DNA of 64,000 nucleotides from an uncultured bacterium (GCA_963848965.1 CAWKFG010000004.1:480001-544000), one strand, 5' to 3'. Shown: positions 27,894 to 44,043, counted from the stretch's first letter. A program made the numbers and translations. Notes: a model not told the origin generated them from the sequence alone.

Positions 27894-27989
27894 TTACTTA
27901 GTTGATGTGTTTAGGAACGATCAAATAAAATTTGAGAGAGCCTTCAAGACATGAAGATAGTTTTTTCAACTAGCTTACGATTAACCTAA
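27894..27989 (+). mobile_element. Degenerate copy of the att-like junction / orphan tail (YLVDVFRNDQIKFE / SLQDMKIVFS)
   Basis: TTACTTAGTTGATGTGTTTAGGAACGATC differs at 1 of 29 nt from 41614-41642; peptide similarity continues after a frameshift. Confidence 0.65.
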
Positions 27990-28204
27990 GAATAAAGAAC
28001 ATTCTTTAAAGTATACATAATTAAGTATACACCTATTTTATATAAAAGCAACGAAATAAAAGCCACGTTAGTATTATTATCACTAACAGCTTCGAGGACA
28101 TAAGACCGCTCTAAAGTATAAATGTGGAAAAAACCTTACTCTTGCATTAAGGTAATCCTGATATTTATGCTATTCTATGAACCATTTTTCTAAGGAGTGC
28201 GTGT

Positions 28205-29164
28205 ATGGAGAATCGGTCAAATCTAGAAATTGCTACTTTTGCCGGTGGCTGTTTTTGGTGCATGGTGCAACCCTTTGAAACACAGGAAGGGGTTATTGAG
28301 GTTATTGCAGGATATGCAGGCGGTACAGGAGAAAACCCTACCTACCAAGACTATGCAGAAAAAGGATATACTGAAGTGGTTCAAGTCACTTATAATCCCA
28401 AAAAAGTGAGCTATGACACGTTGCTTGATATCTTTTGGCGTCAAATAGATCCTACAGACGTCGGTGGACAATTTGCCGATAGAGGACCAGGATATAAGTC
28501 TGCCATTTTTTACCATACTCCTGAGCAGAAGCAGCAAGCAGAAGAATCAAAACAAAGATTACAAGACTCAGGAAAATTCTCAAAAAAACTTGTTACTCAG
28601 ATTATTGAATTCTCGAATTTCTACCCTGCAGAGCAGTATCACCAACAGTATTATAAAAAGAACCCTGAACATTATAAAATTTATAAAACTCTGTCAGGAA
28701 GAGAACGATTTTTAGAAAACGTTTGGAACAATAATCGAGCGCAAGAGGATCCGCTACGAAAACAACTTACTCCGCTACAATATGACGTTATTTGCTGTGA
28801 TGCAACAGAACCTCCATTTAATAATGAATACTGGGATAATAAAGCACTTGGTATTTATGTAGATCGAATCTCTGGTGAACCACTGTTTAGCTCGTTAGAT
28901 AAATATGATTCTGGTACTGGATGGCCAAGTTTTACCAAACCTCTTGAGCCTACTAATATTGTTGAAAAAGAAGACATTACTTTAGCTATTCCACGCACTG
29001 AAATTCGTAGCAAAAAGGCAGATTCACACTTAGGACATGTCTTCAATGATGGTCCAAAGCCTGGTGGATTACGCTACTGTGTAAACTCAGCAGCACTCCG
29101 TTTTATCCCTCTTGAAGATCTAGAAAAAGAAGGTTATAGAGAGTATAGAACGTTGTTTGAGTAA
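28205..29164 (+). CDS. msrAB: Bifunctional methionine sulfoxide reductase MsrA-MsrB
   Basis: FAGGCFWC (MsrA); [15 protein letters not shown] and RYCVNSAAL (MsrB). Confidence 0.95.
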
Positions 29165-29378
29165 TATCCCTCTCACAATTCTTACAAGATTCATTTTAAA
29201 CTATCTTGAGCATTTTTTAAAAATGTTCGAAAAAATTTTATAGTATAAAATGCATTTAATTATAAAAATATTTACTGCCTGTCAATAAATTTGCTATGCT
29301 TCACTATAAATAACTCGCAATACAAGAGAGTACTTATAAAGAGCTATAAAAACTAATTATTAATAAAAAGGAGTTTCT

Positions 29379-29939
29379 ATGAACCATATATATAAAATGA
29401 TGTTTGCTTTATTCTCTATAGCAGGCATTAACCATCTAGCCTTTGGGTATGAATATACCTTTTCTAACCATATTCCGGACAAAACCATTGAAGTTCAAAT
29501 TAAACTTTTAGGTGTAAATGAACCTTGGTATAAGCAAACAATTAAACCTAATACAACTGCAACCTTCTTATGGAAAGCATTCAGCAAAGATAAAGATCCA
29601 CTTGAATACGCAGAATGGAGAAAATCAGGACTTTGTTTGCAAAGTATTCAATATAGAACAGCAGGAACAGCTTGGAGAGAAACTGACATAACTTTTGCAG
29701 ATTCAGATGCATACAAGAGAATAGTAAATGCTGCTGAAAATCTAGGAGAAGGAACTGCTAGTGTAGCTCAATTTGCAGCAGCTGTTTCAGGAGTTCCTAC
29801 TGAAAAAGTAAGTGGTGGCTCTTTAGCAAAAGGTATCGCTGAGCTTATTGGAACAAGTGCTTGCCGCGATAGACACTTTGATATTGCTCCAGATAAAACT
29901 GATCCTAAACAAATCGCATTCTATTCAATTGCAAAATAA
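29379..29939 (+). CDS. Hypothetical secreted protein
   Basis: AGGAG RBS, signal peptide ...LAFG|Y, downstream terminator. Confidence 0.75.
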   Translation: MNHIYKMMFALFSIAGINHLAFGYEYTFSNHIPDKTIEVQIKLLGVNEPWYKQTIKPNTTATFLWKAFSKDKDPLEYAEWRKSGLCLQSIQYRTAGTAWRETDITFADSDAYKRIVNAAENLGEGTASVAQFAAAVSGVPTEKVSGGSLAKGIAELIGTSACRDRHFDIAPDKTDPKQIAFYSIAK

Positions 29940-29944
29940 CGTAT

Positions 29945-29967
29945 AGCCCAGCAAAGCTGGGCTTTTC
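29945..29967 (+). terminator. Intrinsic terminator
   Basis: AGCCCAGC-AAA-GCTGGGCT followed by a T-run. Confidence 0.75.
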
Positions 29968-30113
29968 TACAAATAATTCTTTTCACTTATCTTTTCTGAC
30001 AATCACATTTTTCAAAAAATTCAAAATCATATTGCTTGCAAATTGTATTTAATATGGTAAAATGCTAATTAGCCAATAAAAACAAAAATTAAAATATTTA
30101 CCAGGGGTTAATT

Positions 30114-31205
30114 ATGTATAAAAAATTATCATTCCTCTTTCTTACCGCTTATATGGCAGTAAACAGTTTACAGGCAATGGAACCGGCAAATCCAGAACCA
30201 GCTAAAGACATGTATATACCTCAAACTGCATGTCCACATCCAGTATACCTTATCAACGATTCTGATGAAGATTTGGACATAACAATTATCATAGATTCTA
30301 ACACTGTAACAGAACAGAATGCTTATATTTTAAAAGCTATTTTGGCAGGAATTACAGGATTTCTTCCGTGTCATGACTTGGAAGAAAGAACAGATCAAGC
30401 TATTGTAACTAAGTTTAAAGGCGCAAAGTTTGAATTTACTATCAAACCACATGACAGCCTTTTACTTCCAGGTCTTGCTACAGGACAAAAAATTGCACTT
30501 TGGAAAAAGAGATGGGGTATAAATACGCTTGCGTATCAACTTCCCTTACAGGAAATCGAAGAGCTTGTAAAATCCAGCCATGGAGATCGAAAAAAAATTG
30601 TACAAGTCTATGTCAAACCATGCCTTGGTCTTAATTATGGTTTTAATTTTCAGCAATGTTTAACAGAGCAAGAAGATAATTATAATCTAAAGCAATTGAA
30701 TCAAAGAGCTATACCTCTTGATCCTGCAGCTATAGCAGATGATATACCTGTATGTCTTGATCCAGTTAGGCTTTTTAACAAGAGTGAGGAAGATTTAAAT
30801 ATAAGAATTATAACCAATCCTAACAACACAATAACCAAAAATGGTAATCTTCTTCAGTTCATCTTGGTTTCACTTACAGCAGGCTTAAACCTTGATGATA
30901 TGAATGGCATTATGGCACAGAATATACAAGACAAATTTAGAAAAGCTGAGTTCGATTTCTCTATAAAGCCAAGCGATAATCTTTTAATTCCTGGTATTGC
31001 TGCAAAGCAGGAAATCCTTGTATGGAAAAAAAGAGGCGGAACAGACGTCAAGTCTTATTCTGTTCCTCTTAACAAAATAGAGCAGTCACTTAGTGTTATA
31101 AATCGTAAAGACATGAAGAATACAGTACATGTATTTATCACCCCAAGCATTTATCTTTGGGGCTTCTATTTTGATGTGTCTACAGTACAAGAAAAAACTG
31201 CATAA
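30114..31205 (+). CDS. Exported protein made of two tandem ~170-aa homologous domains
   Basis: Signal ...LQA|MEP; CPHPVYLINDSDEDL..KF..A.FEFTIKP.D.LL.PG..WKKR repeated as CLDPVRLFNKSEEDL..KF..AEFDFSIKP.D.LL.PG..WKKR. Confidence 0.8.
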   Translation: MYKKLSFLFLTAYMAVNSLQAMEPANPEPAKDMYIPQTACPHPVYLINDSDEDLDITIIIDSNTVTEQNAYILKAILAGITGFLPCHDLEERTDQAIVTKFKGAKFEFTIKPHDSLLLPGLATGQKIALWKKRWGINTLAYQLPLQEIEELVKSSHGDRKKIVQVYVKPCLGLNYGFNFQQCLTEQEDNYNLKQLNQRAIPLDPAAIADDIPVCLDPVRLFNKSEEDLNIRIITNPNNTITKNGNLLQFILVSLTAGLNLDDMNGIMAQNIQDKFRKAEFDFSIKPSDNLLIPGIAAKQEILVWKKRGGTDVKSYSVPLNKIEQSLSVINRKDMKNTVHVFITPSIYLWGFYFDVSTVQEKTA

Positions 31206-31223
31206 AAAACATCTTTATTGAGT

Positions 31224-31248
31224 AAGAAGGGCCTATAAGGCCCTTCTT
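31224..31248. terminator. Bidirectional intrinsic terminator
   Basis: AAGAAGGGCCT-ATA-AGGCCCTTCTT. Confidence 0.8.
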
Positions 31249-31431
31249 TGTTTACATAGTACAACCGAATAAATGCATAACGATATTGCTCTTATAATAG
31301 ATAATGCTAAGCTTACAGAAACTTTTTATCTATATAAAGATGCCTCATATAAGGATGGTATAAATCATAGCCAAGATCCTCTTGCCAAAGAGAGAACCAT
31401 TTTAGCTAAGCAAAAAGAAAAAACTCAAAAA

Positions 31432-32100
31432 TCATAAATTTACGATGAGCTCTTTTATTTGCTGAGCTATCTCTTTGGCACTATTTTTTTGAGAGTTTAC
31501 CCGTAAATCATAGGTTTTTGTTCCATAGACGGTAAAATAATGACTACGCGCATGTCCTTTAGGAGAAGTTCCACGAGCGTCTTCACGCTGTTCTAGCGTT
31601 TCTAAAGGAATATCTACTGCAATATAATAGGTTTTAAAGTCTTTAAGTTGCTTTTCAAGGTCTTGAAACCACTCTTTCTTGTAAGCAATATAGTCAACAA
31701 TAACATTGCAACCGCTCTTGGCATATGCTGCAATAGCGCTATTCATACCGTATGCTACCTTATCTCCTTCTGGGCCTACAAAAAGTGTGATAACGTTACT
31801 ACCTTCAGCATCCTTTGAGCTTTCTATCCAACGGATAGGGTTTTGTGACTGCCAAAAATTCATATTCTCTAGATTAATCTCTGGCAATACACCGTCAAAG
31901 AGACTATCAATACCAACTCTAATCCATAAGTTTGGCATCATAAGCTTTTGAAATTCCTTTTGTATAGAACTTTTACCTGATCCTGAAGGACCGTTAAGAA
32001 TAATTACGCGTCCCGATATCGTTTTCGTTTTGTTAAAGCTGAACATAGCAATAAGCCCTATAGTACTTAAAGCGAAAAGAAAAATTATAATATTTTTCAT
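31432..32100 (-). CDS. Chloramphenicol phosphotransferase-like P-loop kinase with N-terminal hydrophobic segment
   Basis: IILNGPSGSGKSS, GID, NVIVD, LEQREDARG and YDLRVNS motifs. Confidence 0.8.
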   Translation of the reverse strand: MKNIIIFLFALSTIGLIAMFSFNKTKTISGRVIILNGPSGSGKSSIQKEFQKLMMPNLWIRVGIDSLFDGVLPEINLENMNFWQSQNPIRWIESSKDAEGSNVITLFVGPEGDKVAYGMNSAIAAYAKSGCNVIVDYIAYKKEWFQDLEKQLKDFKTYYIAVDIPLETLEQREDARGTSPKGHARSHYFTVYGTKTYDLRVNSQKNSAKEIAQQIKELIVNL

Positions 32101-32172
32101 AAGCTCCTCTATGTTTTACTTACTTTATGCTTATATTTAACTTTATACCTTTATTTAAAAAAATGTCAAAAA

Positions 32173-32722
32173 TCAATTCCTATTGTTTAAGTTAGCCTTA
32201 CAAGATAAAAATTGTTCTAACCGTGCTAATACCTCAGGCATATTTGCTCTACCAAATCCTATTCTAAAATGATTTGATGCAACATTATAGACAGAATCAG
32301 GGAGCAAAAGAGTATCTACTTGTTTGGCAATTCGCTGACAAAAAGAATCAACTGATTCTGTACTCTTGTACTTTACAAAACCAGTACAACCTCCTTGTGG
32401 ACGAACCCATCAAAAAAGATCTGCATAGTGTTCAAAAAACCTATCAAGTAACGTAAGATTGGTATGCACAATAGCATTATTGCGTTTTAATATGATATCT
32501 TTGTTTTGAAGTGCAATTAAACTAAGAATCTCTGAAAGACCGCCATTACAGATGGTTATATAATAGCGATTTTGCACTATTTTTTGTAATATCTCTTCAT
32601 TCTGAGATACAATCCATCCAATACGCAAACCAGGAAGACCAAAAGATTTACTCATAACATCTAACGATATTCCTTTAGCATAGAGGCAAGCTGCAGGTAG
32701 AGCCCATCCTTTTTGAGGTAGC
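32173..32722 (-). pseudogene. 5'-truncated duplicate of the adjacent aminotransferase 3' half
   Basis: High nucleotide similarity to about 33555-34065; in-frame TGA at 32410-32412 (ADLF*WVRP versus ADFFLWVRP). Confidence 0.85.
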
Positions 32723-32833
32723 CTACAACACTTCTAAGAAAATAATCCTAATAAAAACTTTTTATATCTCTTGTTTTAAACATTTAAATTTATTTATACT
32801 CTAGTATATAATTAATAACAAAAGGGGTCTCAT

Positions 32834-33421
32834 ATGAAAAATTTTTATTACTTTATTTATTTATCTCTTACTTTTACAGCAAGCCATGCTCTCTATAGCA
32901 TGGAACCGACTCGACCTTCACTATCTATTGGGTCTGAGGAATGGCTTAAAGAGCAAGCAGAAATACTTCGTAAGAATGTAATAGAAAGGGGTATTATTAA
33001 TATGTATATAGACCCGGCGAAAGCACACTCTATACAAGCAGCTTCACCAAGCATAGGCATTGAAGATCTTTTTAGCAAACTTCAACCATCTATAGAACTT
33101 ACTAAAGCATTTACTCATATTACACCTTCTAAAGTATGGGTAATTGGTACTCGAGGACCGGATGCCCTATTACTACTCTATAATCAAATGGGTCAACTAG
33201 ATACAAGTTTTTTTAACCCTCAGAAAACAGATCATTATCTTATGCCAGGCGTTATGACTATTAACTCTGTAATGTTAGGTATAGATCCATCAACTATTAA
33301 ATCAATAACTATAACGAATATTGAGGAAGATTCTACGACAAAAACAGTAAACGGAACCCTTCAGATAACTCTTAATCCACCGCATAATCAAACCATAACA
33401 AGGTATTTTACGTTATCTTAA
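32834..33421 (+). CDS. Hypothetical exported protein
   Basis: Signal peptide ...LYS|MEP; GQLDTSF motif reminiscent of delta-60 repeats. Confidence 0.7.
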   Translation: MKNFYYFIYLSLTFTASHALYSMEPTRPSLSIGSEEWLKEQAEILRKNVIERGIINMYIDPAKAHSIQAASPSIGIEDLFSKLQPSIELTKAFTHITPSKVWVIGTRGPDALLLLYNQMGQLDTSFFNPQKTDHYLMPGVMTINSVMLGIDPSTIKSITITNIEEDSTTKTVNGTLQITLNPPHNQTITRYFTLS

Positions 33422-33497
33422 TAGATTACCTTTCACAGCCAGATCTAAAAAGTAAAATGTGCGCAAAGTCAAAGAAGTGAAGCATAGGAAAGGCTCA

Positions 33498-34658
33498 TTA
33501 TATACTATGCTTCCTCACTGAGGTTATGCTAGACGAAAAAGATTCATTTAAAATGAATCGTTCTAACTGTGCTAATGCTTCGGGCATATTTGCTCTACCA
33601 AAACCTACTCTAAAATGATTTGATGCAATATTGTATACAGAACCAGGGAGCAAAAGAGTATCTACCTGTTTGGCAACTCGCTGACAGAAAGAATCAACCG
33701 ATTCAGTGCTCTGATATTTTACAAAACCTGTACAACCTCCTTGTGGACGAACCCATAAAAAGAAATCTGCATATTCTTCAAAAAACCTATCAAGTAACGT
33801 AAGATTGGAATTCACAATAGCATTATTGCGCTTTAATATAATCTCTTTATTTCGAAGTGCTATGAGGCTAAGAATTTCTGAAGGTCCACTATTGCAAATG
33901 GTTGTGTAATAGCGATTTTGAACTATTTTTTGTAATATCTCTTCATTTTGGCACGCAATCCATCCAATACGTAAACCAGGCAAGCCAAAGGATTTACTCA
34001 TAACACCTAATGATATTCCTTTTGCGTAAAGAGATGCTACAGAAGCAGCCCAGCCCTCTTGAGGAGCACCAAGCAGGCGATACACTTCATCAGAAAATAA
34101 CCAAATACCATGATCTTCAAGTAATGTTACCAGCTGAGTCAATTCAGCAGGCGTCATTACCTGTCCAGTAGGATTGTGTGGAAAATTAATAATAACGCAT
34201 TTAGTGTTTGGCTTAATAGCCTCTTTAAGAGCATGTATATCAATGCGCCAGTTATTTTCTTCCTTAAGCTCAATCGTCGTAAGCTCGGAACCCACAAACC
34301 TTGGTATTTCCATGAGAGACTGATAGCACGGTGTAAAAACAATAACATGATCTTGTGGTGTACAGAGAGTAAGGAGGCTGCAAAAAATTCCTTCTTCTGC
34401 GCCTGCAAAACATAAAATATTACGTGCATTTAAACCTGGATATAACTGTTGTGCTATGGTTTCACGTAATAAGGGGAGTCCTCTTGTCTCTGTGTAACCT
34501 AACCGTTGAGTATCCCACAATAACTTCTCTTCTGAAGTTGCCATCTCTAATAATTCTTTAAGAGACCAACTTTCTGCGTCTGAACTACTAAGCATATATT
34601 TTGTTGTAAACTCGTATTTTGCATAATAATCTTCTAGTTTAAAAGTCTTAAATTGCAT
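33498..34658 (-). CDS. PLP-dependent class I/II aminotransferase (capreomycidine-synthase-like subgroup)
   Basis: NFPHNPTG, FSDEVYR and MSKSFGLPGLRIGW (PLP lysine). Confidence 0.9.
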   Translation of the reverse strand: MQFKTFKLEDYYAKYEFTTKYMLSSSDAESWSLKELLEMATSEEKLLWDTQRLGYTETRGLPLLRETIAQQLYPGLNARNILCFAGAEEGIFCSLLTLCTPQDHVIVFTPCYQSLMEIPRFVGSELTTIELKEENNWRIDIHALKEAIKPNTKCVIINFPHNPTGQVMTPAELTQLVTLLEDHGIWLFSDEVYRLLGAPQEGWAASVASLYAKGISLGVMSKSFGLPGLRIGWIACQNEEILQKIVQNRYYTTICNSGPSEILSLIALRNKEIILKRNNAIVNSNLTLLDRFFEEYADFFLWVRPQGGCTGFVKYQSTESVDSFCQRVAKQVDTLLLPGSVYNIASNHFRVGFGRANMPEALAQLERFILNESFSSSITSVRKHSI

Positions 34659-34667
34659 GATTATCCT

Positions 34668-34850
34668 TTTTAAAGTCTCGTAAATAAGTGAACTATCTCC
34701 ACCTAAGAGGTGGAGGCTGCCTAAGAACTCCTGAGCAACCTCAGGATATTGATTAGGCTATCCCCGTGATCCCCACGGTTCTAATATTTCTAGCAGCATT
34801 GATATCTCTCTCTTGAGAGTACCCACAATGCTGACAATCATACCATCTTT
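34668..34850 (-). ncRNA. Predicted TnpB omegaRNA (scaffold from tnpB 3' end to the right end, plus flanking guide); 5' boundary approximate
   Basis: Established TnpB architecture; hairpins CCTGAG..CTCAGG and CTCCACC..GGTGGAG; guide would read UUAUUUACGAGACUUUAAAA. Confidence 0.55.
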
Positions 34851-35981
34851 CTGATAGTTCTAGACTTTCTTTTATACTACCGCATGAAGAACACATCTTT
34901 GATGAAGGAAACCATTTGTCTATCTTTATAAGCTGTTTGCCTCTCTCTGCCAATTTATAGCCAAGCATAAAAACAAATTTGCCCCATCCGTTATCATGAA
35001 CAGATTTGCCAAAGTTTAAGGCCTGGCTCATTGCTTGCATATTAAGGTCTTCTAGTATAATGGCATCATATAACTCTACTAATGTATAGCTCAGTTTATG
35101 AAGAAAGTCATTACGTAGACACGTTATGTGCTCATAAAACCGTGCAAGTTTAAGTCGAGCCTTATGCCAGTTTTTACTTCCTTTTACTTTACGAGAAAGA
35201 GATTGGCACAACTTTACGAGTTTCTCTTCTGCTTTACGGTAGTATCTTGGATAATTGGCTTTCTTACCCTCACTACTTACGTATAAAGAAGTCATTGAAT
35301 AATCTAATCCTAGTACTTTATCTAAAGCTATTGGTACTTGCTCTTGGTATGATATACCTTCAACAACAATGCTTATGTAATAATTATCAGATGCTGTTTG
35401 TGTTACCGTACATCTTTTTATCTTTTCATGAGTCTTTATCTGCCTATGCATAACCATCTTAACAAAACCAATTTTAGGCAACCGAATGTAATTACTTTCA
35501 ATACGAATAGCGTCTGATGCCTCTTGGTTATTCGTTGTATAACTCTTCTTAGCATACTTTTTATTCTTGAAATGAGGAAACTGCGCTAACCCATTAGAAT
35601 AACGTTTAACAGCTTGTTTAAGAAAAAGCTGAACATTAGCAAGAGCAAGGCTATCTACTTCTTTAAGAAAAGAGAATATATTTTTAAATTGAGCAGGAGT
35701 AAGAATAAAGCCATGCTGGATAAGGCAAGCAAGGAGCTTATTCCAGATAAAGCGAGTACAACCAAAAGTCTTGGCAAAGAGTATGCGCTGCCCTTTAGTA
35801 GGCAAAAGCCTAAATTTGTATGCTTTATTATACTTTTTCATTATTTACCATTCTTGCAAATAATTAAGCATATACTAGTAGTTTATAGCAGTAATATGAA
35901 AGAAGCAATAGGGGTTCTAGTGCACATTTTTGCGATTCATCCCCTACTTACAGAAGATAGGGGACTGCTCGCTTCCCCTTG
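34688..35981 (-). mobile_element. IS200/IS605-family (IS1341-like, tnpB-only) element
   Basis: Left end follows TTTAA (minus strand) with subterminal hairpin CCCCTA..TAGGGG; right end ...CTCCACCTCTTAGGTGGAGATAGTTCAC; no tnpA. Confidence 0.85.
34753..35841 (-). CDS. tnpB: RNA-guided endonuclease TnpB
   Basis: KAYKFRL..FGCTRFIWN N-terminus; RuvC GLD, LEDL and RDINAA; Zn finger CSSC..CQHC. Confidence 0.95.
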   Translation of the reverse strand: MKKYNKAYKFRLLPTKGQRILFAKTFGCTRFIWNKLLACLIQHGFILTPAQFKNIFSFLKEVDSLALANVQLFLKQAVKRYSNGLAQFPHFKNKKYAKKSYTTNNQEASDAIRIESNYIRLPKIGFVKMVMHRQIKTHEKIKRCTVTQTASDNYYISIVVEGISYQEQVPIALDKVLGLDYSMTSLYVSSEGKKANYPRYYRKAEEKLVKLCQSLSRKVKGSKNWHKARLKLARFYEHITCLRNDFLHKLSYTLVELYDAIILEDLNMQAMSQALNFGKSVHDNGWGKFVFMLGYKLAERGKQLIKIDKWFPSSKMCSSCGSIKESLELSERWYDCQHCGYSQERDINAARNIRTVGITGIA

Positions 35982-36011
35982 TTAAAAAACCTTAAAGTTT
36001 CCTTGTAAGAA

Positions 36012-36045: not shown

Positions 36046-36066
36046 ATCCAACTAAAAGAGGCTTTT

Positions 36067-36658: not shown

Positions 36659-36659
36659 A

Positions 36660-36792
36660 AAAGAAAAAGCTCAAATTGCAGAGCGTCTGTCAAAAATAAA
36701 AACTGACGATTATTTCGGTGACCATAAAGATGTTGCTGAGTATATTTGAGAGTTAAGATGGAAAAATGGTCGAAGGCTTTATTATGCATACA
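36660..36792 (+). pseudogene. RelE/ParE-superfamily toxin remnant
   Basis: QIAERLSKIKTDDYFGDHKDVAEYI*ELRWKNGRRLYYAY; no start; TGA at 36747. Confidence 0.65.
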
Positions 36793-37301
36793 AGAAAGAT
36801 AAGAAATGTAGTTTACCGGATTATGCTACCCATGTTATTGGGGTTGCAGGCTTAGTAATTGATAAAAACAGTAATGTTTTAGTTGTGAAAGAAAAGTATA
36901 AACCTGAATTAGGGTACAAACTACCTGGAGGTGGCGTTGAAAGAGGAGAAGATCTCTGGGCTGCTGCACTAAGAGAAGTAGAAGAAACAGGAATTAAGAC
37001 AAAATTTTTGGGCGTAATAGCTTGGCGCCAAAGCCACCCTTTCGCTAATGATCATGTAACTGACCTTTATTTTGCCTGTTTACTAGAGCCTACTACCGAT
37101 AAAATTATCATACAAGAAAGCGAAATAATAGAGGCTTTATAGATGCCTTATAATCAATTCAAAGCGTTAGCTAAAAATTCCTGCGCTCAATTTTTAGCTG
37201 CTTACGAGGCTACTCAGCACCCTCAAATACTCTTTAAAGTTACACTAGATGGTTCACGATCCCAGATAGAGCTTTATGCTCACCCTGAAACTAAGATATA
37301 A
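36793..37301 (+). pseudogene. NUDT6-like Nudix hydrolase fragment
   Basis: LPDYATHVIGVAGLVID..VLVVKEK..KLPGG..REVEETG; 5' truncated, Nudix box one residue short, internal TAG at 37140. Confidence 0.75.
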
Positions 37302-37304
37302 GTA

Positions 37305-38198
37305 TTACGCACCAAGCTGACATATATTTGCTTGCGTTACATTTTGCGGCAACTTTGACAATGATTCTTTTACTTCGTCTTCACTTAACCACTTTTCGTG
37401 CTTGACTAAGTAATCCAACTGAAATTTTGCTATATCATAATCTAATGTATTTGCTATAGTGTCAGCCCGTGTGTAATGGAAACCCTGAAACGAGATCTTA
37501 CGCGTTATGGCTTCATCTCTTACTGATAGCACGTTTTCCAGCCTATCATCAAAAAAGATTATAGTGCCCGGTTTATAGTTTAGCTCATCAAGGAGAGCTC
37601 CTAAGACTATCCCTTTATCTTCTTCATTTGAAAGTAATATACCGTTATAAAAAGTAGGATAAGCATTAAAACGCCAAGGAAACTGCTTGAAAGTCAAATT
37701 TTGACTAAAGCTTGAATGAAAATTTAAGCCTAATCTTTCAAGTTGAGCGAAACGATATTCTGCCAAACTCTCAATCTTGCCATAAGGCCCTGCCTGCATT
37801 TTCGTTAATGCGATAACTTTAACGTTTTTATCCTGCAACATTTTTATTGCAGTAACAATATGCGGCTCTATAATCTCTCGCTTTGCTTGCAATAAGACAT
37901 TGCTCCAAATATGTTCAACTCTGTCACCAACAGCTTTTTCAAATTCTTGCTTAAGATCTCTCCCTTTACCCTCTAAAAAGAATTTGGGTAAATGTATCCT
38001 ATCAGTAGGTATAATTAATGTCTCATCTACATCAAAAATAACAAGGGTTTGGCTATCTACTTTCTCTAAGATATGTTTTACTTCCTCTATTGAATTTATC
38101 TGGCTAATAGTATGATCATGAGCTACTAACATACAAAAGAACATCAATACGGTAAGCAAAACCAGAGTCTTTAGTTTATACAGAGAGAGCGTCTCCAT
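37305..38198 (-). CDS. DUF2608 (HAD-like) exported protein
   Basis: VIFDVDETL, IALT, KG and IIFFDD HAD motifs; signal peptide. Confidence 0.85.
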   Translation of the reverse strand: METLSLYKLKTLVLLTVLMFFCMLVAHDHTISQINSIEEVKHILEKVDSQTLVIFDVDETLIIPTDRIHLPKFFLEGKGRDLKQEFEKAVGDRVEHIWSNVLLQAKREIIEPHIVTAIKMLQDKNVKVIALTKMQAGPYGKIESLAEYRFAQLERLGLNFHSSFSQNLTFKQFPWRFNAYPTFYNGILLSNEEDKGIVLGALLDELNYKPGTIIFFDDRLENVLSVRDEAITRKISFQGFHYTRADTIANTLDYDIAKFQLDYLVKHEKWLSEDEVKESLSKLPQNVTQANICQLGA

Positions 38199-38249
38199 TT
38201 AGATCCTTTCAATAGAATTTGCATATAGTTTATTAAGTGGCTCTGAAGT

Positions 38250-38620
38250 TAAACTTTCAGCCTTGAAGCTTTATTGCCTTTACCAAAAAATCCTTCTTTC
38301 GGATTAGCTTTAGCATCACTGAAAACTTTAAACCGATAATCAAGCTTCGGCCTTGCTCAAATACACTATTGTTAGGTTGTATTGTAAGGCGATTCAACAC
38401 TTCCTGGTCAAAATCGTACTTACATTACTTAAAAAAAGCAAGGCTCATCTATTATGCGTTTTATGATGCTAGCTTTGAGATAATCTATATCTTGCAAACG
38501 GTAACGCTTAGAAATAATACCATTTCTTAAAGCATAGGCATTTTTTAATGAGTGTGAAAAAGTCGCGCAAGCCGCGCGATAATCATATGGCCTATCTATT
38601 TTTACTATTACTCTGGGCCA
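38250..38620 (-). pseudogene. Possible fragmented ORF of unknown function
   Basis: Two ~60-codon open stretches (PRVIVKIDRPYDY..., KYDFDQEVLNRL...) offset at a T-run. Confidence 0.3.
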
Positions 38621-38802
38621 AATTTACAATATCCCTCAAGTGACTAATTCACCTAAAAAATCAGCATATCCTAATGAGATAGCAAAGATCTGCGTTAATT
38701 TCTGCAACCAGCGGTTGCAGTTTTATTTGTTTAGTAAAGCACTAGTGATTTACAGCCAAAAGCTATGAAAGTATTTTTGCAAATAAATTGATTCCTCTTT
38801 CT

Positions 38803-38942
38803 GCGCTCTTTAGGGCTTCCCTCCTACGCCTATTGGGCTACGGCGGTTAACCTTCGCTTGGGTTATCCATATTATTCACTACTTTAAACCAATCACTTAA
38901 AGAAACTGGCCTGCCAACTGAAGCTTTAGCGAAGGTTGGCGT
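38803..38942. repeat. REPIN-like double-hairpin module, copy A
   Basis: CCTCCTACGC..GCTACGGCGG-AACCTTCGCT-spacer-TGGCCTGCCAACTGAAGCT..AGCGAAGGTTGGCGT. Confidence 0.85.
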
Positions 38943-38972
38943 TACTTAGTTAATATGTTTAGAAACAACCAA
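38937..38972 (+). mobile_element. att-like junction with truncated orphan tail WRYLVNMFRNNQ
   Basis: TGGCGTTACTTAGTTAATATGTTTAGAAAC, homologous to the 41609 copy. Confidence 0.7.
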
Positions 38973-39150
38973 TTTAATGGATGCCGCTTTCTTTAACCGG
39001 CCAGGTGTAGTAAAACCGTTACTTGAACATGATGCTGATATTACTATTAAAAATGACGAAGGTAAAACAGCGTTAGATATAGCTCTAGAAAAGGGTAATA
39101 AAGAAATTGTTAAGCTTTTAGAGGATGTAATGGCTAAACAACAAAAGTAA
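38965..39150 (+). pseudogene. Ankyrin gene 3' fragment (last repeats plus terminal helix)
   Basis: TTNLMDAAFFNRPGVVKPLLEHDADITIKNDEGKTALDIALEKGNKEIVKLLEDVMAKQQK*. Confidence 0.8.
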
Positions 39151-39338
39151 GATAGAGGCTAGAGCTATAGCCCTTTTTTTATGCATGGTAAGTACCAGGA
39201 TCCTGTGGTTAGGAAGATTACTTGATTAGCCGAGGGGCCACAGGTATCTTAATGTAAAATCCAGAGTCCGATTTCGAATTTTACGAGAGGATATAGCAAG
39301 CGTTCCCCCTAGAGCTCCTATGTCCCTTGTGCTTTGTC

Positions 39339-39419
39339 TTGAATATTAAATTGGTAAAATGGTATAATAAGAGCTGAAGGTAAGAATTTTTCTTACCTTC
39401 AGCTTCCAAATTGGTAAAA
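39339..39419 (+). promoter_or_regulatory. Promoter-like sequence followed by a perfect 15-bp hairpin, bracketed by 12-bp direct repeats
   Basis: TTGAAT-N18-TATAAT (extended TG); AGCTGAAGGTAAGAA-TTT-TTCTTACCTTCAGCT; AAATTGGTAAAA at 39348 and 39408. Confidence 0.55.
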
Positions 39420-39445
39420 GTTAAAAATTAAGTGTAGAAGTAATA

Positions 39446-39658
39446 GGATCTACAGCTTTAATGGTTGTATCAAGAAGCAATTATCCTCAAAGAGTACTAC
39501 AAATAGCAAAACTGTTACTTGATCATGGTGCTGACTCTAACATCAAAAACCGAGAAGGCTTAACAGTGTTAGATAGTGTCCAACAAAAAGGTAATCAAGA
39601 AATTATTAAACTTTTAAAAGAGGCGATAGCTAAATGGCAAAAAAGTAAAACAGGCTAG
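39446..39658 (+). pseudogene. Second ankyrin gene 3' fragment
   Basis: GSTALMV..IAKLLLDHGADSNIKNREGLTVLD..GNQEIIKLLKEAIAKWQKSKTG*. Confidence 0.8.
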
Positions 39659-39836
39659 GATTATAAACCTTATTACCTTGATTATATTCTGATTATTATG
39701 CCCGGCAAGTGATGCTGATAAAAAGGTGGTGATTACCGTAATTTATGATATTAATTATCAGAATTTGCACATCATTAAAGGATAGGAAGTTTTTGCTTCT
39801 CCTTGGGATCTTAGTAGGAAGAATCCTTGAGGATAT

Positions 39837-40745
39837 TTAGCTCTTGCTTTGTTGCTGTTTAACCATTGCATCTTGCAGTATTTCGATCATTTCCTCATTA
39901 TGATTGTCTTGAGCTTTGCGTAATGCAGTTGTGCCAAACTTGTTTTTGATATTAGGATTAGCTCCATGCTCAAGAAGTAACTTTACTATATCAGTATGAT
40001 TATATAGTGCTGCATTTATTAAGGCAGTCCATCCTTCACTACTTTGAGCATTGACGTCAGCTCCATGCTCAAGCAAAAGTCTTACAATTTCTAAATTTCC
40101 CTGTAGTGCGGCCTCCATTAAAGCAGTCGTGCCATACATATTTTGAGCATTAACATTAGCTCCATGTTCAAGTAAATATTGAGCTGCCTCTAAGGAAGAT
40201 CCTAAAGTTGCTTTTATAAGAGGAGTGTTTAAGTAAACCCCTCTAATATTAGGGTTAACATGTTGAGCTATAAGTTGTTTTATTGCATTCATATTTCCTT
40301 CACGTACAGCCTCCAAAAGTTGTAACTGTTGAGGCCACACTTCCTTAAGCCAACGTTCTGCACCTTCAACGCTCTCCTTTTTAAGAGCTTCAGCAATCTC
40401 ATTTGGAGCTACCTTGAACTTTATGGCTAAAGCGTAAATAATCGGTTCAAGAGATTTTAAATCTTTAAAGTAACGGGCATGAATTTTTGGATCAGCAAGC
40501 ACCTTTAGCTTTTTAATTGCTTCTTTAAGGTCCTTAGATGATTCTATTGCTTGACGTATTCCAATAAAATGCTGTAGTTCATTGATAAGTTCTCTTGGTA
40601 AAGTACTTAGATAAGAGCTTTGCTCTTTCCTTAACTGTTCAAGTACATACTCTTGTTCTTCCTGCATTGGTTCAATGATTTGCTTCATTCCAAAGCTAAG
40701 GCTAGGTAGAACTAAAAGTATTAATATCAGATATTTCCAAATCAT
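39837..40745 (-). CDS. Exported ankyrin-repeat protein with N-terminal F-box-like motif
   Basis: Signal ...SFG|MKQ; YLSTLPRELINEL; ankyrin repeats LLEHGANVNAQ. Confidence 0.9.
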   Translation of the reverse strand: MIWKYLILILLVLPSLSFGMKQIIEPMQEEQEYVLEQLRKEQSSYLSTLPRELINELQHFIGIRQAIESSKDLKEAIKKLKVLADPKIHARYFKDLKSLEPIIYALAIKFKVAPNEIAEALKKESVEGAERWLKEVWPQQLQLLEAVREGNMNAIKQLIAQHVNPNIRGVYLNTPLIKATLGSSLEAAQYLLEHGANVNAQNMYGTTALMEAALQGNLEIVRLLLEHGADVNAQSSEGWTALINAALYNHTDIVKLLLEHGANPNIKNKFGTTALRKAQDNHNEEMIEILQDAMVKQQQSKS

Positions 40746-40937
40746 ACTATCTTCCTATACAATAAATTTTACTTATTAATTACCCTTAGTATAATCAATA
40801 AAGGTAAAATAAATCAATAAGTAATAAATTAGAATCAGGATAATGGCATTAAAAATTTTGCCTTTAAGCATTTTTGTTGGCTTAGCCAAAAAATAGATAA
40901 AAGAAATTTGGCGAAGCTTTTAAAAAAAGCATGCTAC

Positions 40938-41177
40938 TTAAAAAGCAATTCGCTTTAATAATTCTTCTGCTATTTTTATATCTTGAACATTCCTTTGATA
41001 ACCTACATGTCGCTTATCTCTTTCCATTTCTTGTCGCATATAAGAGATCTTAAATAGCATAATCTCAAAAAGATAGGCAGAATCCCAATCTTCATCTTTC
41101 CATAACACTGGAAACCAGGCAATAAATCTTTTTATTCTTCTATATCCATTGCGAAAGTAGTATGATGGAAATCCCAT
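40938..41177 (-). CDS. Small hypothetical protein (possibly a truncated phage-type gene)
   Basis: GGAG RBS; 79-aa ORF with WFPVLWKDEDWD motif. Confidence 0.5.
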   Translation of the reverse strand: MGFPSYYFRNGYRRIKRFIAWFPVLWKDEDWDSAYLFEIMLFKISYMRQEMERDKRHVGYQRNVQDIKIAEELLKRIAF

Positions 41178-41230
41178 GAATTTTAATCTCCATTTTTATA
41201 GCGTTTAATAAGACAAAAGAAACGTTTAAG

Positions 41231-41473
41231 TTACCATAAACGTTTCTTTGCAAATGCTCTACCTGAATGTGACTTTAAGTATTTTTCAAATTCTAAAGCC
41301 TTTTGTTGATCCCTAAACGCAATGTAGAATATTAACTCCCACGGTCTATCATCACTTGTATAAACGGATCCACCGGAATTATGAGTTTCTAATCTTTGTT
41401 TCAAATTAATGGTATAACCAATGTAAATTTTATCACTAGACTTTTTTGATTGGATTAAATAGACGTAGTACAT
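41231..41473 (-). CDS. Stand-alone GIY-YIG nuclease (80 aa), copy 1
   Basis: YVY..YIGYT..RL..HN.G..T..RPW..EKYLKS.SGR. Confidence 0.92.
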   Translation of the reverse strand: MYYVYLIQSKKSSDKIYIGYTINLKQRLETHNSGGSVYTSDDRPWELIFYIAFRDQQKALEFEKYLKSHSGRAFAKKRLW

Positions 41474-41490
41474 TATAGTATATTTGATTA

Positions 41491-41614
41491 GGGCCGGTCC
41501 GTCTACGCTTATAGCTTCGCCGGACAGTCTTCGCTTTCGCTCTCAATATCAAATTATTATAATTTCCTTTTACTGGCCTGCCAGGCGTAGCTCCGAAGGA
41601 GCGAAGACTGGCGT
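41491..41614. repeat. REPIN-like double-hairpin module, copy B
   Basis: GTCCGTCTACGCT..AGCTTCGCCGGAC-AGTCTTCGCT-spacer-TGGCCTGCCAGGCGTAGCTCCGAAGGAGCGAAGACTGGCGT. Confidence 0.85.
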
Positions 41615-41713
41615 TACTTAGTTGATATGTTTAGGAACGATCGAGTAGAGATTGAAATTAGTCTTCAAAGTATCCAGACAGCTTTTTCAATGTTGAAAAT
41701 TCAGCTTAGTTAA
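41609..41713 (+). mobile_element. att-like junction with intact orphan peptide tail WRYLVDMFRNDRVEIEISLQSIQTAFSMLKIQLS*
   Basis: Begins with TGGCGT, identical to the antisense 3' end of tRNA-Glu; conserved at peptide level with the 27894 and 38937 copies. Confidence 0.7.
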
Positions 41714-41859
41714 AAAAACTTACGCTTAAACAAGGACTACTCCCTTCGCTTTTAATAAAACGCGTAAGTGTAACCATCTTGGTAATTATATCTTTAATTT
41801 AGCAGTATCTTAGTATCGGCAAACTAAGTACCATTTCTAAGAAGTTTTACCATAACCTG

Positions 41860-42020
41860 AACCCCGAAAACAACCCCGAAATTCTACTCTCTAAAAATTT
41901 CGGGGTTAATTTTAAGTGTAGATCATAATATTCAATCAAACTCCCGATGAATCGATTATAGGCTAATTTTAAGAGGGTACTTTTGAAATAAATATAGAAA
42001 AAAATATTTAGAACCCCGAA
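41860..42020. repeat. Four copies of AACCCCGAA (three direct, one inverted)
   Basis: 41860, 41872, 42012 direct; 41899-41907 inverted. Confidence 0.75.
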
Positions 42021-42036
42021 AAATTTCCCTTAATAT

Positions 42037-43413
42037 TTAGTTATTTTTGATTAAGGTAAGTAAAGATTGGGGTAGTTTAAAAGTTTTATAAGGATCAAAA
42101 GCAGATGTTGCTAATTCAACCAATAATCCTTCATCTACCATTTGCTTTAAGCGTTTTGTTGCAGTTCTATCACTTACTTCCCATAAATCTTGAGCCTGCT
42201 TTGGTGAGATTTCAACATGCTCTTTCAAAAACTCAATAATAGGTAACTGCCAGCTTTCTCTCGGTAATAATTGACGTGGAGCATTATAAAGAGTTGCTCT
42301 AAAAAAAGTGCCTCTTTCCTCGAATTTTGGAGGTTGCACGCCTTGTTGCTTAGATATCTGTATCATTCTTCCCAACCCAGATCCCCAACGCTCAATAAGA
42401 TCAAGTTCTCTAAATACGTTACCGATAACTTTATTTCTAAGTAAGGATATACCATTAAGCGCATCATCTAAAGTTAGCCCCAGTGGCAACGCCCCAGGAT
42501 TAGTAACTTCAATTCTATCATCAAATATAGCAACGGTAATCGAAGCTCCTTGAATTGAATAATCTGTATGAAGGAGAGCATTAATTATTGCTTCTCGAAC
42601 CACTTGTGTATTGTATTCAGGGATATCTATTCTTCTCATTTCACCAAATTTGGCAGCGGTAGAAGTATGCCTTTTTATAAAATCAACTATAGGATCCAGT
42701 GCTATAGAAATAGGGATTTCTAAGTCTTTATGGTCAAGGATTTCAGCTTTGGTTAGACCAATAAATCTACCCAACCGAATCATTGCGTCAGGAAAAAATT
42801 CTTTAGGGTTTCGTCCAAAGAGTAGAACTGCAGCGTTTGAAGGAAAAGGCTTGCCTTGATACTTCACGATCAAATCTAATGATTGGGCTGTTTGCTCTGA
42901 AAAACTTTTATGGACTTTTTCAAATAATTGTTTTGCTAAATCGAATTGAATACGATCAAGTGGGCATTCAGCATTGGGCTGTCCATCAAAAAATCTACGC
43001 TGCTTTGATTGTCTAATTTCTTCAATCATATGCAAATCTGCAGGTCTGTTGGTTGAACCTAACCGCATAAAAGTACTATGTTCAATTCCCTTCGCTTTTA
43101 GATAATAAGGACCAAAACTGTGATCTACAACAATAATAAGAACATCACGCTTTCGCCATGTATATCTATGGAAAGTAGGAATCAATAAAGGCTCTATAGA
43201 TTCTGCGACTGCATTTGCAATTTTTTCTTCATCTTTTTGTATATCTTGCAAACCTATTACTTCTTTGGTTTTATCTTGAACGCCTACAATAAGTGTCCCA
43301 CCTGCAGTATTTGCAAAGGCTATTATAGTTTGAATAATCTTTTGAAGCGATAAGGTATTTTCTTTAAACTCAAGAGTTTTGCCTTCGTCTCTGACTAATA
43401 ATTCTTCAAGCAT
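42037..43413 (-). CDS. Schlafen/AlbA_2 + HATPase_c_4 (RecG-C-like) + wHTH protein
   Basis: EGKTLEFKE, AFANTAGGTLIVGV, REAIINALLHTDY, DDRIEVTNPG, ERWGSG and C-terminal HTH. Confidence 0.9.
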   Translation of the reverse strand: MLEELLVRDEGKTLEFKENTLSLQKIIQTIIAFANTAGGTLIVGVQDKTKEVIGLQDIQKDEEKIANAVAESIEPLLIPTFHRYTWRKRDVLIIVVDHSFGPYYLKAKGIEHSTFMRLGSTNRPADLHMIEEIRQSKQRRFFDGQPNAECPLDRIQFDLAKQLFEKVHKSFSEQTAQSLDLIVKYQGKPFPSNAAVLLFGRNPKEFFPDAMIRLGRFIGLTKAEILDHKDLEIPISIALDPIVDFIKRHTSTAAKFGEMRRIDIPEYNTQVVREAIINALLHTDYSIQGASITVAIFDDRIEVTNPGALPLGLTLDDALNGISLLRNKVIGNVFRELDLIERWGSGLGRMIQISKQQGVQPPKFEERGTFFRATLYNAPRQLLPRESWQLPIIEFLKEHVEISPKQAQDLWEVSDRTATKRLKQMVDEGLLVELATSAFDPYKTFKLPQSLLTLIKNN

Positions 43414-43509
43414 TGTAACCTTCCTAATGTTTTTAAAAAAATAACTTAGAAAGCTAAGAACGTCAAAGACTTGCAATACCATAAGTGGTGGTTTCGATTT
43501 CTTTTAATT

Positions 43510-43529
43510 TCTGCCACCGCTGGTGGCAG
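43510..43529. promoter_or_regulatory. Palindrome upstream of the AlbA-family gene and downstream of GIY-YIG copy 2 (operator or terminator)
   Basis: CTGCCACC-GCT-GGTGGCAG, with an extra GTGGTGG half-site near 43486. Confidence 0.5.
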
Positions 43530-43570
43530 TTTTTCTTTACCCTTTGAAAATCGCATATTCCCAGCAAAAA

Positions 43571-43813
43571 CTACCATAATCGTTTCTTTGCGAATGCTCT
43601 ACCTGAGCCAGACTTTAAATATTTTTCAAAGCTAATTGCAGCAGCTCTCTCTTTAAAAGCAATACATGTTATTAGTTCCCAAGGCTTGAATGATGAAGTA
43701 TGCACTGAACCACCAGAATTATGCGTTTGAAGTCGCTCATTGACATTATCTGTGTAGCCTATGTATGTTTGATCTGGATTATTTATTGATTTGATAAGGT
43801 ATACGTAATACAT
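43571..43813 (-). CDS. Stand-alone GIY-YIG nuclease (80 aa), copy 2
   Basis: Same motifs as copy 1; about 54/80 identical by manual count; GAGG RBS. Confidence 0.92.
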   Translation of the reverse strand: MYYVYLIKSINNPDQTYIGYTDNVNERLQTHNSGGSVHTSSFKPWELITCIAFKERAAAISFEKYLKSGSGRAFAKKRLW

Positions 43814-43840
43814 AATACCTCACTATTGATTAACATTCTA

Positions 43841-43971
43841 GGGACGGTCCTCCTTCGCTCTTTAGGGCTACGGCGGACAACCTTCGCTTAGGCTATAAAT
43901 ATCACCCCTTATTTTAAATCAATCCTTTAAAGAAATGGTCTGCCAACCGAAGCTTCAGCAAAGGTTGGCGT
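43841..43971. repeat. REPIN-like double-hairpin module, copy C, overlapping the tRNA-Glu CCA end
   Basis: GTCCTCCTTCGCT..GCTACGGCGGAC-AACCTTCGCT-spacer-TGGTCTGCCAACCGAAGCTTCAGCAAAGGTTGGCGT. Confidence 0.85.
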
Positions 43972-44043
43972 CCCTAAGGGGATTCGAACCCCTGTTTTCG
44001 CCGTGAAAGGGCGATGTCCTAGACCAGGCTAGACGATAGGGAC
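43966..44043 (-). tRNA. tRNA-Glu (TTC)
   Basis: GTCCCTA acceptor, anticodon loop CTTTCAC, GGTTCGAATCC T-arm, encoded CCA. Confidence 0.97.

Follow-up and report, generated by a model that had tools for sequence, protein, structure and literature searches.

A tRNA-Glu gene as a probable hot spot for serine integrase elements that split their own recombinase gene

Introduction

How does a bacterial genome come to carry, at the end of a single tRNA gene, a row of unrelated genes set off by related boundaries when no integrase stands among them? The question is raised by a stretch of 64,000 nucleotides from an uncultured bacterium (GCA_963848965.1 CAWKFG010000004.1:480001-544000), here called the window and corresponding to C4:480001-544000 of the source genome, G000. 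The region from 27.9 to 44.0 kb appears to be a tRNA-anchored accretion in which at least three integrative elements have left remains. The explanation favored here, and considered probable, is that the 3' end of the tRNA-Glu gene is a hot spot at which at least three elements, each moved by a large serine recombinase (LSR) and each since decayed, were integrated by splitting the recombinase gene, and that a separate cassette, a GIY-YIG gene with a double-hairpin module, uses the same site. The finding would then be one of serine-integrase integrative elements in a decayed, multi-unit state. Relatives with which the window was compared are given as G004, G008, G011, G018, G021, G030, and G122; counts for the order refer to 121 genomes, G000 included.

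The repeated junction

The anchor is tRNA-Glu(ttc) at 43966-44043 (-), with tRNA-Lys(ttt) as its upstream neighbor at 44080-44155 (-). Both are identified by ARAGORN and by Rfam, and a scan of the window with Rfam finds only these two tRNAs and no family for the hairpins described below. The end of tRNA-Glu, ACGCCA, reads TGGCGT on the plus strand, and this hexamer lies at 38937, 41609, and 43966. By itself the hexamer is unremarkable: there are 16 matches on both strands compared with 10.2 +/- 3.1 expected, and 3 of 100 shuffles reach 16. The non-random part is rather its context, a homologous module before it and a tail after it. All three copies are preceded by a homologous module of about 130 nt with two inverted hairpins (repeats 38830-38905/43860-43935, 78% identity, and 38896-38949/43925-43978, 80% identity, together with a repeat in three copies at 38905, 41572, and 43934). 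Two of the three are followed by a homologous frame, the tail, a third copy of which lies at 27894 (27894-27935 is 69% identical to 38942-38983 and 86% identical to 41614-41655). Thus, hexamer scan, repeat comparison, and frame translation bear out the arrangement of TGGCGT, module, and start-less frame that an initial annotation of this DNA had described, and also the hairpin-less copy of the tail that it had counted as a fourth, whose start is at 27892, or at 27889 if the residues RD are included.

The three tails differ in how much they retain. Tail 3 (41609-41713, +), the left end of unit A (41609-43965), consists of the TGGCGT core followed by 34 codons and a stop, scores 61 bits, and reads WRYLVDMFRNDRVEIEISLQSIQTAFSMLKIQLS in the frame from 41609. 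Tail 2 (38937-38996, +; E 1.3e-4), the left end of unit B (38937-41608), is shortened to the core and 19 codons and reads WRYLVNMFRNNQFNGCRFL from 38937. Tail 1 (27889-27954, +; E 9.5e-7), the outermost scar, is degraded (RDYLVDVFRNDQIKFERAFKT, then a stop), lacks both TGGCG and a hairpin, and reads (RD)YLVDVFRNDQIKFERAFKT from 27889/27892; it opens unit C (27892-38936). Each of the three frames ends in a stop, none has a start codon, and at most 18 codons are open upstream of each.

The tail and its parent enzyme

A word-based protein search with the tail peptide matched no longer protein. When a profile of 16 tails was compared with 1.84 billion proteins, however, 48 matches at E<=1e-3 were obtained, most of which are open reading frames (ORFs) of 35-130 aa that end in the tail. 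The longer matches are C-terminal pieces of LSRs in which the zinc-ribbon/coiled-coil region runs directly into W-x-P-LVDMFRN. In one of these, P0035, a stretch of 152 aa matches residues 346-497 of an integrated LSR (L070) at 63% identity, and WLPLDDMFRN... follows; P0009, P0041, and P0016 are 59-65% identical to integrated LSRs up to the W, after which the tail follows; and P0020, which has a zinc ribbon and a coiled-coil region, gives a weaker match (24% over 202 aa, E 8.5e-10). Judged from these alignments, the tail is the C-terminus of an LSR, and the window tails correspond to the last 20-34 codons of a serine integrase gene. The search of protein databases and of the genome thus led to LSR C-terminal fragments and to one LSR in G000. 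The initial annotation had suspected an attachment (att) site within the 3' part of an integrase gene, so that integration would strand the C-terminal tail at the distal end as an orphan; this idea holds, with an LSR as the enzyme.

The single LSR of G000 lies outside the window, at C1:377112-378569(-), and is 486 aa long. Its Pfam matches are all above cut-off (Resolvase PF00239, 75 bits; Recombinase PF07508, 52.7; Zn_ribbon_recom PF13408, 33.3), and its NCBIfam matches, to CcrB, CcrA, and XisF, are weak and all below cut-off. The protein ends ...NDRQAW followed by RAR and a stop, its W codon coincides with the CCA end of a convergent tRNA-Arg(tcg), and four tails lie beyond it. The earlier statement that there is no integrase is therefore correct for the window, where tblastn with this LSR finds nothing, and incorrect for the genome. 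The tyrosine recombinase family PF00589 gives two Xer-sized matches on contig C1 and none in the window.

LSR homologues are present in 41 genomes of the order. In 26 of 30 LSR loci, the in-frame TGG (W) coincides with the first three bases, antisense to CCA, of a convergent tRNA (Glu in 11 loci, Asp in 6, Arg in 6, and Gln, Met, and Asn in one each). The four exceptions are a locus without a detected tRNA, two fragmentary genes, and a distant LSR that overlaps tRNA-Asn out of register. At 11 loci of relatives, the TGG of the W codon falls exactly on the tRNA-Glu position that corresponds to 43966. Because the protein fragments run into the tail and the in-frame TGG meets a tRNA at 26 of the 30 loci, the attachment core is placed inside the LSR gene; an attP (the element's attachment site) within the integrase coding sequence is thus a feature of the LSR family. 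Furthermore, since the TGG of the W codon is the antisense of the tRNA's CCA, integration splits the LSR gene and carries the tail to the distal side of the element. The terminal ACGCCA of tRNA-Glu (TGGCGT on the plus strand) is then the recombination core; consequently, tRNA-Glu forms the B' half of a site like attB (the host attachment site), and tail 3 forms a P' half-site.

A search of metagenome contigs with P0035 gave 80 loci, of which the G000-based tail profile recognized only L089. Twelve were inspected: two contain integrated LSRs (L083 on tRNA-Asn and L082 on tRNA-Asp), and most of the others are LSR 3' stumps joined to divergent tails. The sole viral-contig locus found, L081, carries at 6001-6192 only the first 65 LSR codons (residues 2-65), 70% identical, followed by unrelated ORFs, with no tail or tRNA nearby.

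Repeats of module and tail in direct orientation could in principle also result from local tandem duplication, or they might represent a small conserved gene or regulatory repeat that has nothing to do with recombination. This is hardly conceivable: the cargo is wholly different between units, the two GIY-YIG genes of the window are only 67% identical in their DNA, and the tails, which have no start codon, are continuous with LSR genes elsewhere. Both the fragment alignments and the tRNA register at 26 of 30 loci contradict it.

The same site in relatives

The DEAD-box helicase gene (26303-27553) and mgtE (45330-46691), which flank the region, are found in the same order, separated by 18-28 kb, in G004, G008, G011, and G018, and MgtE adjoins the tRNA-Lys/tRNA-Glu pair in relatives. 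Between them, the site is occupied in two of the four genomes. In G018 the order is GIY-YIG(-), hairpin, TGGCGT, tail (WRHIVETFRN...), 4.8 kb, LSR, TGGCGT, and tRNA-Glu; in G004 it is hairpin, TGGCGTCCC, tail, about 19 kb, LSR, TGGCGTCCC, and tRNA-Glu. The sequence common to attL and attR, the left and right ends of an integrated element, is 8 bp in G018 and 9 bp in G004. In G008 the site is empty and consists of GIY-YIG, hairpin, TGGCGT, and tRNA-Glu; in G011 it is empty and has neither hairpin nor GIY-YIG gene. In addition, G030:C42 carries GIY-YIG, hairpin, tail, 3 kb, and then an LSR that runs up to the contig end. The presence/absence polymorphism bounded by TGGCGT that serial integration would entail is thus seen at tRNA-Glu, and the occupied and empty sites favor insertion at the core. 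None of the window's cargo genes is present in the four regions of G004, G008, G011, and G018; only DEAD, GIY-YIG, MgtE, and RluD are found. A public read run (X1, containing 1/20 of the sampled words) compared with 27000-46900 gave 14 short contig pieces and no joints, and bears on circles or empty sites in neither direction.

The GIY-YIG/hairpin module

GIY-YIG gene 2 (43571-43813, -; 80 aa, SLX1/UPF0213-like, Pfam PF01541) lies downstream of the tRNAs in the same direction, and gene 1 (41231-41473, -; 80 aa) also matches PF01541. Since PF01541 spans residues 1-72 of the 80, the product is a single-domain GIY-YIG protein; its nearest solved relatives are SLX1 and UPF0213 BH0048, and NCBIfam gives no match for it. 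Directly after gene 2 there is a terminator-like GC-rich stem with a T run (43500-43533), a related copy of which at 38695-38724 (83%) has been kept though the GIY-YIG gene there is lost. The double-hairpin module that abuts tRNA-Glu (43838-43965) ends in a hairpin, GCCAACC...GGTTGGC, that pairs with the GCCA end of the tRNA. A variant B (GCCAGGCGTAGCTCCGAAGGAGCGAAGACTGGC) lies at 41490-41608, its terminal hairpin being 97% identical to the one that abuts tRNA-Asp at C4:219892-219926, and a module without a GIY-YIG gene lies at 38800-38936. The stem always pairs the GCCA of the tRNA with a downstream UGGC, and substitutions in the inner stem, which differ between copies and genomes, compensate one another.

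In G000, BLAST and a pattern scan find the CGTAGC...GCGAAG hairpins at the 3' ends of tRNA-Ala(ggc), Leu(taa), Lys(ctt), Asp, Glu, and Ser(gga), and before tails at C2:5264, C2:10437, C4:216919, positions 38937 and 41609 of the window, and C1:392664 with its C3 copy. The hairpin family is found nowhere else in this genome, the other 7 of 17 pattern matches not being members; a genome-wide scatter of the module unlinked to tRNA ends or tails, which would have spoken against the initial annotation, is therefore not the case in G000. Gene 2 and its module recur at C2:10043-10442 (92%) and C2:4881-5269 (88%), giving three 88-92% identical copies in this genome, each closing a unit whose cargo differs. 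Of seven loci in relatives, six have the GIY-YIG gene after a tRNA (Glu, Arg, or Asp) and one has it ahead of a tail. G122 contains three copies of the 32-nt hairpin within the tail, 18 nt beyond TGG, which indicates that the hairpin can insert by itself.

In the window, the module holds the tRNA-adjacent place that is taken by the LSR in relatives, and GIY-YIG enzymes include homing endonucleases as well as, in the account of PMC11893778, hairpin-specific Ssn nucleases. Both points agree with the version given by the initial annotation, in which the elements are non-autonomous, the GIY-YIG/hairpin module does the work of an integrase, and insertion at TGGCGT is nuclease driven. That version is nevertheless very improbable. 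It is an LSR that lies next to the tRNA in relatives, and the module instead flanks the empty site of G008 and the far, attL side of the LSR-bearing elements in G018 and G030. Furthermore, both the eight-tail array at tRNA-Arg(tct) and the six-tail array of G021 (see below) have tails and no module, the G021 locus (that locus only, not the whole genome) suggesting array growth without a GIY-YIG gene, and the LSR alone accounts for the tail. Given its position beside empty sites and on the far side of occupied ones, the module is not part of the LSR elements and belongs to a separate family of tRNA-end cassettes rather than being an integrase substitute. Accordingly, module-TGGCGT-tail is an attL scar composed of old tRNA flank and tail, and module-TGGCGT-tRNA-Glu looks, from its sequence, like an unoccupied attB.

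Tails across the genome and the order

A six-frame profile search of G000 (66,552 segments) reveals 19 tails at E<=0.05, none of which lies in an open frame of more than 59 codons. They form one-directional arrays aimed at tRNA genes: three tails at tRNA-Glu in this window, eight at tRNA-Arg(tct) (C4:435229-453551), four at tRNA-Arg(tcg) (C1:382349-396685), and one at tRNA-Asp (C4:216919), with two more on contig C2, where ARAGORN finds no tRNA. The bases ahead of the conserved peptide match the local tRNA, being TGGCGT for Glu, TGGTGTCCC for Arg(tct), and TGGCGG for Asp. Tails are present in 35 genomes of the order, as short frames and often in arrays. Entropy summed by codon position over 38 tails is 39.0 / 26.8 / 45.2, and conserved residues use synonymous codons (AGG, CGG, AGA, CGC, and CGA for Arg; five to six codons for Leu); consequently, the tail has evolved as a translated sequence.

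Two other origins of the tail were considered and rejected. A decayed tRNA 3' half is not recognized by ARAGORN or Rfam, and the tails of the Glu, Arg, and Asp arrays are more alike mutually than they are to their own tRNAs. A tmRNA-like tag was rejected because the tail frame is antisense to the ACGCCA end.

Several neighbors of the tails may be mentioned. On G000:C2:1-13000 there are two module-TGGCGT-tail junctions of the tRNA-Glu type, and only a tmRNA (42158-42518) is found by ARAGORN on that contig; rearrangement, a second haplotype, or an assembly break could explain such junctions without a tRNA. An IS110-family element (DEDD_Tnp_IS110 + Transposase_20, 314 aa) ends at the identical point of three G000 tails, at C1:386035 (L013:6059-7003(-)), C1:396685 (L013:16709-17653(-)), and C4:452130 (L011 near 18130). 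Its junction joins ..TTAACACA to ATCGTTGAC/ATCGTTTAC and replaces the W-x-x codons of the tail; since at least two of the three tails are clearly different, the element seems to target the tail junction. Inside the tRNA-Arg(tcg) array, an ORF with the plasmid initiator domain Rep3_C (C1:383002-383658(-); L013:3002-3658) gives a hint that the elements are integrative plasmids.

The array of G021 deserves separate description. At C8:34346-38242 (L162:1347-5243), upstream of an intact LSR at tRNA-Asp, six tails spaced 0.7-0.85 kb apart bound five short units, each with matches to toxin-antitoxin domains (ParE/RelB, Gp49/HTH, a PIN-like domain, an antidote-type HTH, and again ParE/RelB). The sequences ahead of the first and the last tail of this array are identical.

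How the array may have grown

In the model favored here, crossover would take place inside the recombinase gene at a Trp codon that precedes the end by some 26-46 codons (the span of the full tails seen), and integration by attP x attB would split the LSR gene. The truncated LSR body would then read into the tRNA (attR), and the last codons of the gene, the tail, would move to the far end of the element beside the old tRNA flank (attL). In the window, all three LSR bodies would since have been lost, leaving only tails (41609, 38937, and 27892) and cargo.

For serine integrases, as PMC3783163 summarizes them, attP x attB is the only pairing that recombines unless a directionality factor is present. 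Three attL-type junctions next to a free-looking attB could not have been produced by a plain attP x attB series. It is postulated that each LSR insertion was followed by a return of the module, moving by itself, to the tRNA end, where it would have displaced the LSR gene; a fresh target for insertion would thereby be provided and the earlier cargo locked in. Such re-establishment is suggested by LSR stumps, cut at different points, that abut hairpins directly (residues 94-112 at C1:392721-392777, a weak match with a tblastn E of 7.7, and residues 1-22 in P0030) and by the three gene 2/module copies that end different units.

A further element of the model concerns how tRNA genes might be recognized. 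In A118-type integrases, according to the model set out in PMC3783163, the motif bound by the zinc-ribbon domain lies 5 bp nearer the center in attB than in attP. Counted from the T of TGG, 32 tails give the consensus TGGCGtCcCCTaGTtGACACGTTtAGGAAC and the 26 target tRNAs TGGCGtcCCcgAnGGGAtTCGAACCC. Beyond the core, the two agree best with the tail shifted 5 bp outward (0.416, compared with 0.16-0.31 at the 11 other offsets tried). The conserved F-R-N codons of the tail may thus constitute the outer zinc-ribbon-domain motif of the attP half-site, copying the T-loop of the tRNA 5 bp outward.

A number of points weigh against this explanation. The best match at an offset of +5 is a ranking of offsets rather than a formal test of significance. 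The window tails read WRY, where those of relatives mostly read WRP, and so their identity with tRNA-Glu is only 6 bp. Since tblastn with the G000 LSR finds no LSR remnant in the window, the former LSRs of its units are reconstructed from those of relatives. A free, unintegrated full-length LSR with its tail was not recovered among the sequences searched; only fragments and stumps of 130-170 codons joined to tails were obtained. Classical serine integrases do not recombine attR with attP, so elements could stack up at one tRNA only with a restored attB or with a relaxed enzyme, both of which are hypothetical. The mobility of the module is deduced from its distribution and its nuclease function is predicted from sequence; moreover, the SRM motif published for the Ssn hairpins (PMC11893778) has two matches in G000, none of them at the module. 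Finally, the five neat units of G021, each a tail with one toxin-antitoxin pair, resemble captured cassettes more than random decay.

This last point favors an integron-like alternative. Here the units would be live cassettes with a site of the form "left module - core - tail" (a B-type left half and a P'-type right half), which an LSR acting in trans, such as the one at tRNA-Arg(tcg), would move to "left module - core - tRNA" after excision between neighboring sites; the tRNA end would correspond to attI and the junctions to attC. In keeping with it, the left halves of internal junctions resemble that of the tRNA junction: the hairpin is found in both the Glu and Asp arrays, and in the eight-tail Arg(tct) array the left halves read ..TTCTAAAGAAGAC and the tRNA flank ..TTCTAAACGAAGC. 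The three closely similar GIY-YIG/hairpin modules end units with unrelated cargo, the six tails of G021 delimit short toxin-antitoxin units with an intact LSR at the tRNA end, and an IS110-family element sits at one junction point in three tails. Elements of the IS1111 type sit likewise in the attC sites of integrons. Against it, the left halves in G021 share only ..AC before TGG and so form no conserved site, the LSR stumps beside hairpins and tails speak for the decay of whole elements, and no circular form or empty variant was seen. Furthermore, the serine integrases that have been studied do not, in the summary of PMC3783163, pair attL-type sites with attB without a directionality factor. 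The alternative is accordingly regarded as unlikely.

A broader proposal, that the order holds a serine-recombinase analogue of the integron, is considered rather unlikely. In such a system the tRNA CCA end would be the fixed insertion site and cassettes would be recognized at the "flank-core-tail" junctions; each genome would have a single LSR, whose gene is whole only after rejoining a tail, and this LSR would move small cassettes in trans, carrying toxin-antitoxin pairs, defense-like genes, and host-interaction genes. The selfish GIY-YIG and hairpin cassette would reset the tRNA end to a fresh target and destroy the resident integrase gene, and the two together would turn hit-and-run insertions into a growing gene array.

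In the explanation preferred here, decayed LSR elements stacked at a tRNA-Glu hot spot, one part of the initial annotation's claim of serially integrated, non-autonomous elements survives, namely accretion anchored at the tRNA; the status of the elements as non-autonomous rather than as decayed autonomous ones is not supported.

Cargo of the units

The cargo that had been named for the window (MsrAB, CPT-like kinase, aminotransferase, MazF, ankyrin, and AlbA_2/HATPase_c_4) is confirmed by Pfam. Unit A carries an AlbA_2 (Schlafen-type) and HATPase_c_4 protein of 481 aa (42037-43482, -). Homologues of this protein are patchy, occurring in 14 genomes of the order, and when they were checked there for movement of cargo, no common junction was seen. 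Unit B contains ankyrin-like fragments, an ankyrin gene (39837-40745(-)), and orf79; two short plus-strand ORFs that adjoin the ankyrin gene, 38977-39150 and 39461-39658, resemble ankyrin-repeat C-terminal pieces when read by eye.

The 11-kb unit C holds MsrAB, two unknown proteins, the CPT-like kinase, the aminotransferase and its fragment, TnpB, MazEF, a NUDIX fragment, and DUF2608. A 300-nt direct repeat (32210-32509/33556-33855, 89% identical) reflects a partial copy, ORF 32410-32655, of the gene for the aminotransferase (33498-34658). The TnpB gene, of the IS605 OrfB type (34753-35841(-); HTH_OrfB_IS605, OrfB_IS605, and Cas12f1-like TNB), has no TnpA beside it among the ORFs listed. The MazE-like and MazF (PemK_toxin) pair, 82 and 116 aa, is present in two different units, at 36067-36658(+) in the window and at G000:C2:8704-9295(+), and a ParD/ParE pair at G000:C2:3974-4564 lies directly ahead of a GIY-YIG module.

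Implications

tRNA genes are the textbook targets of tyrosine integrases. A whole order of protist-dependent bacteria would here be using serine integrases at tRNAs, in single-base register with the CCA end. In such elements the LSR gene would be complete only in the excised or tandem state, providing a built-in switch between free and integrated forms. If the tail does copy the universal T-loop 5 bp out, this would explain retargeting among at least six tRNA species and would be relevant to serine integrase engineering. The 100-nt tail also offers a cheap annotation marker of old insertions, one that delimits islands in which no integrase remains, as in the window. Lastly, the use of one tRNA nucleotide by two unrelated selfish elements may be a general route by which reduced intracellular genomes acquire accessory genes.

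Comparison with known systems

The LSR described here shares with the integrases of phiC31, Bxb1, and A118/LI the same domains (Resolvase, Recombinase, zinc ribbon) and a short common core. Unlike them, it targets the CCA end of a tRNA, and the crossover lies inside its own coding sequence, so that integration removes the last codons (34 in the full tail of the window). The outer motif, which in the half-site of the element seems shifted outward by about 5 bp relative to that of the host, would resemble the A118-type model as it is presented in PMC3783163.

Other likenesses are found among tandem islands and split genes. The SCC elements of staphylococci are LSR-driven islands (CcrA/CcrB) that stack in tandem at the 3' end of rlmH (orfX), and the Ccr recombinases, which are laxer, build tandem SCC islands. 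In the elements considered here, the target is a tRNA rather than rlmH, there is one recombinase rather than a pair, and the gene is split by integration; furthermore, Ccr models score 75-78 bits on the G000 LSR compared with cut-offs of 700-900, which places it outside the SCC/Ccr group. The integrases of SSV-type archaeal viruses and IntP of the Myxococcus phage Mx8 have attP inside int and tRNA targets; integration cuts or re-tails the gene, a piece of which remains at the opposite end of the element. Those enzymes are of the tyrosine type and use long common cores, whereas here a serine recombinase uses a core of 6-9 bp. In mycobacteriophage BPs and its relatives, as outlined in PMC4557955, attP lies within a coding sequence and integration alters the C-terminus of the protein; there, a tyrosine integrase cuts the repressor gene, and in the present case the integrase itself would be cut. 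Such integration-dependent immunity, along with the split integrases of SSV and Mx8, comes nearest in its logic among published systems.

Like integrons, the arrays are one-ended, contain unrelated cargo and a repeated boundary site, have a fixed anchor, and commonly include toxin-antitoxin units. They differ in that the units are 0.7-11 kb long and often hold several genes in both orientations. No IntI tyrosine recombinase (PF00589) is found in the window, nor an attI beside an integrase, and in place of attC-type sites the junctions consist of flank, tRNA-end core, and coding tail; thus the integron-like accretion site of the initial annotation stands as to architecture and falls as to recombinase and sites. 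The module resembles the Ssn family of GIY-YIG single-strand nucleases, as PMC11893778 presents them, in being a minimal single-domain GIY-YIG gene flanked by hairpin-forming repeats, and differs in that its hairpins lie only at tRNA ends or tails. Among the papers listed on Dependentiae serine recombinases, Dependentiae mobile elements at tRNAs, and LSR attB sites in tRNA genes, titles and abstracts hold no description of such elements. Three things would then be new: arrays of orphan tails in which no integrase remains, a single nucleotide at which two families of elements meet, and the apparent +5 relation between tail and tRNA.

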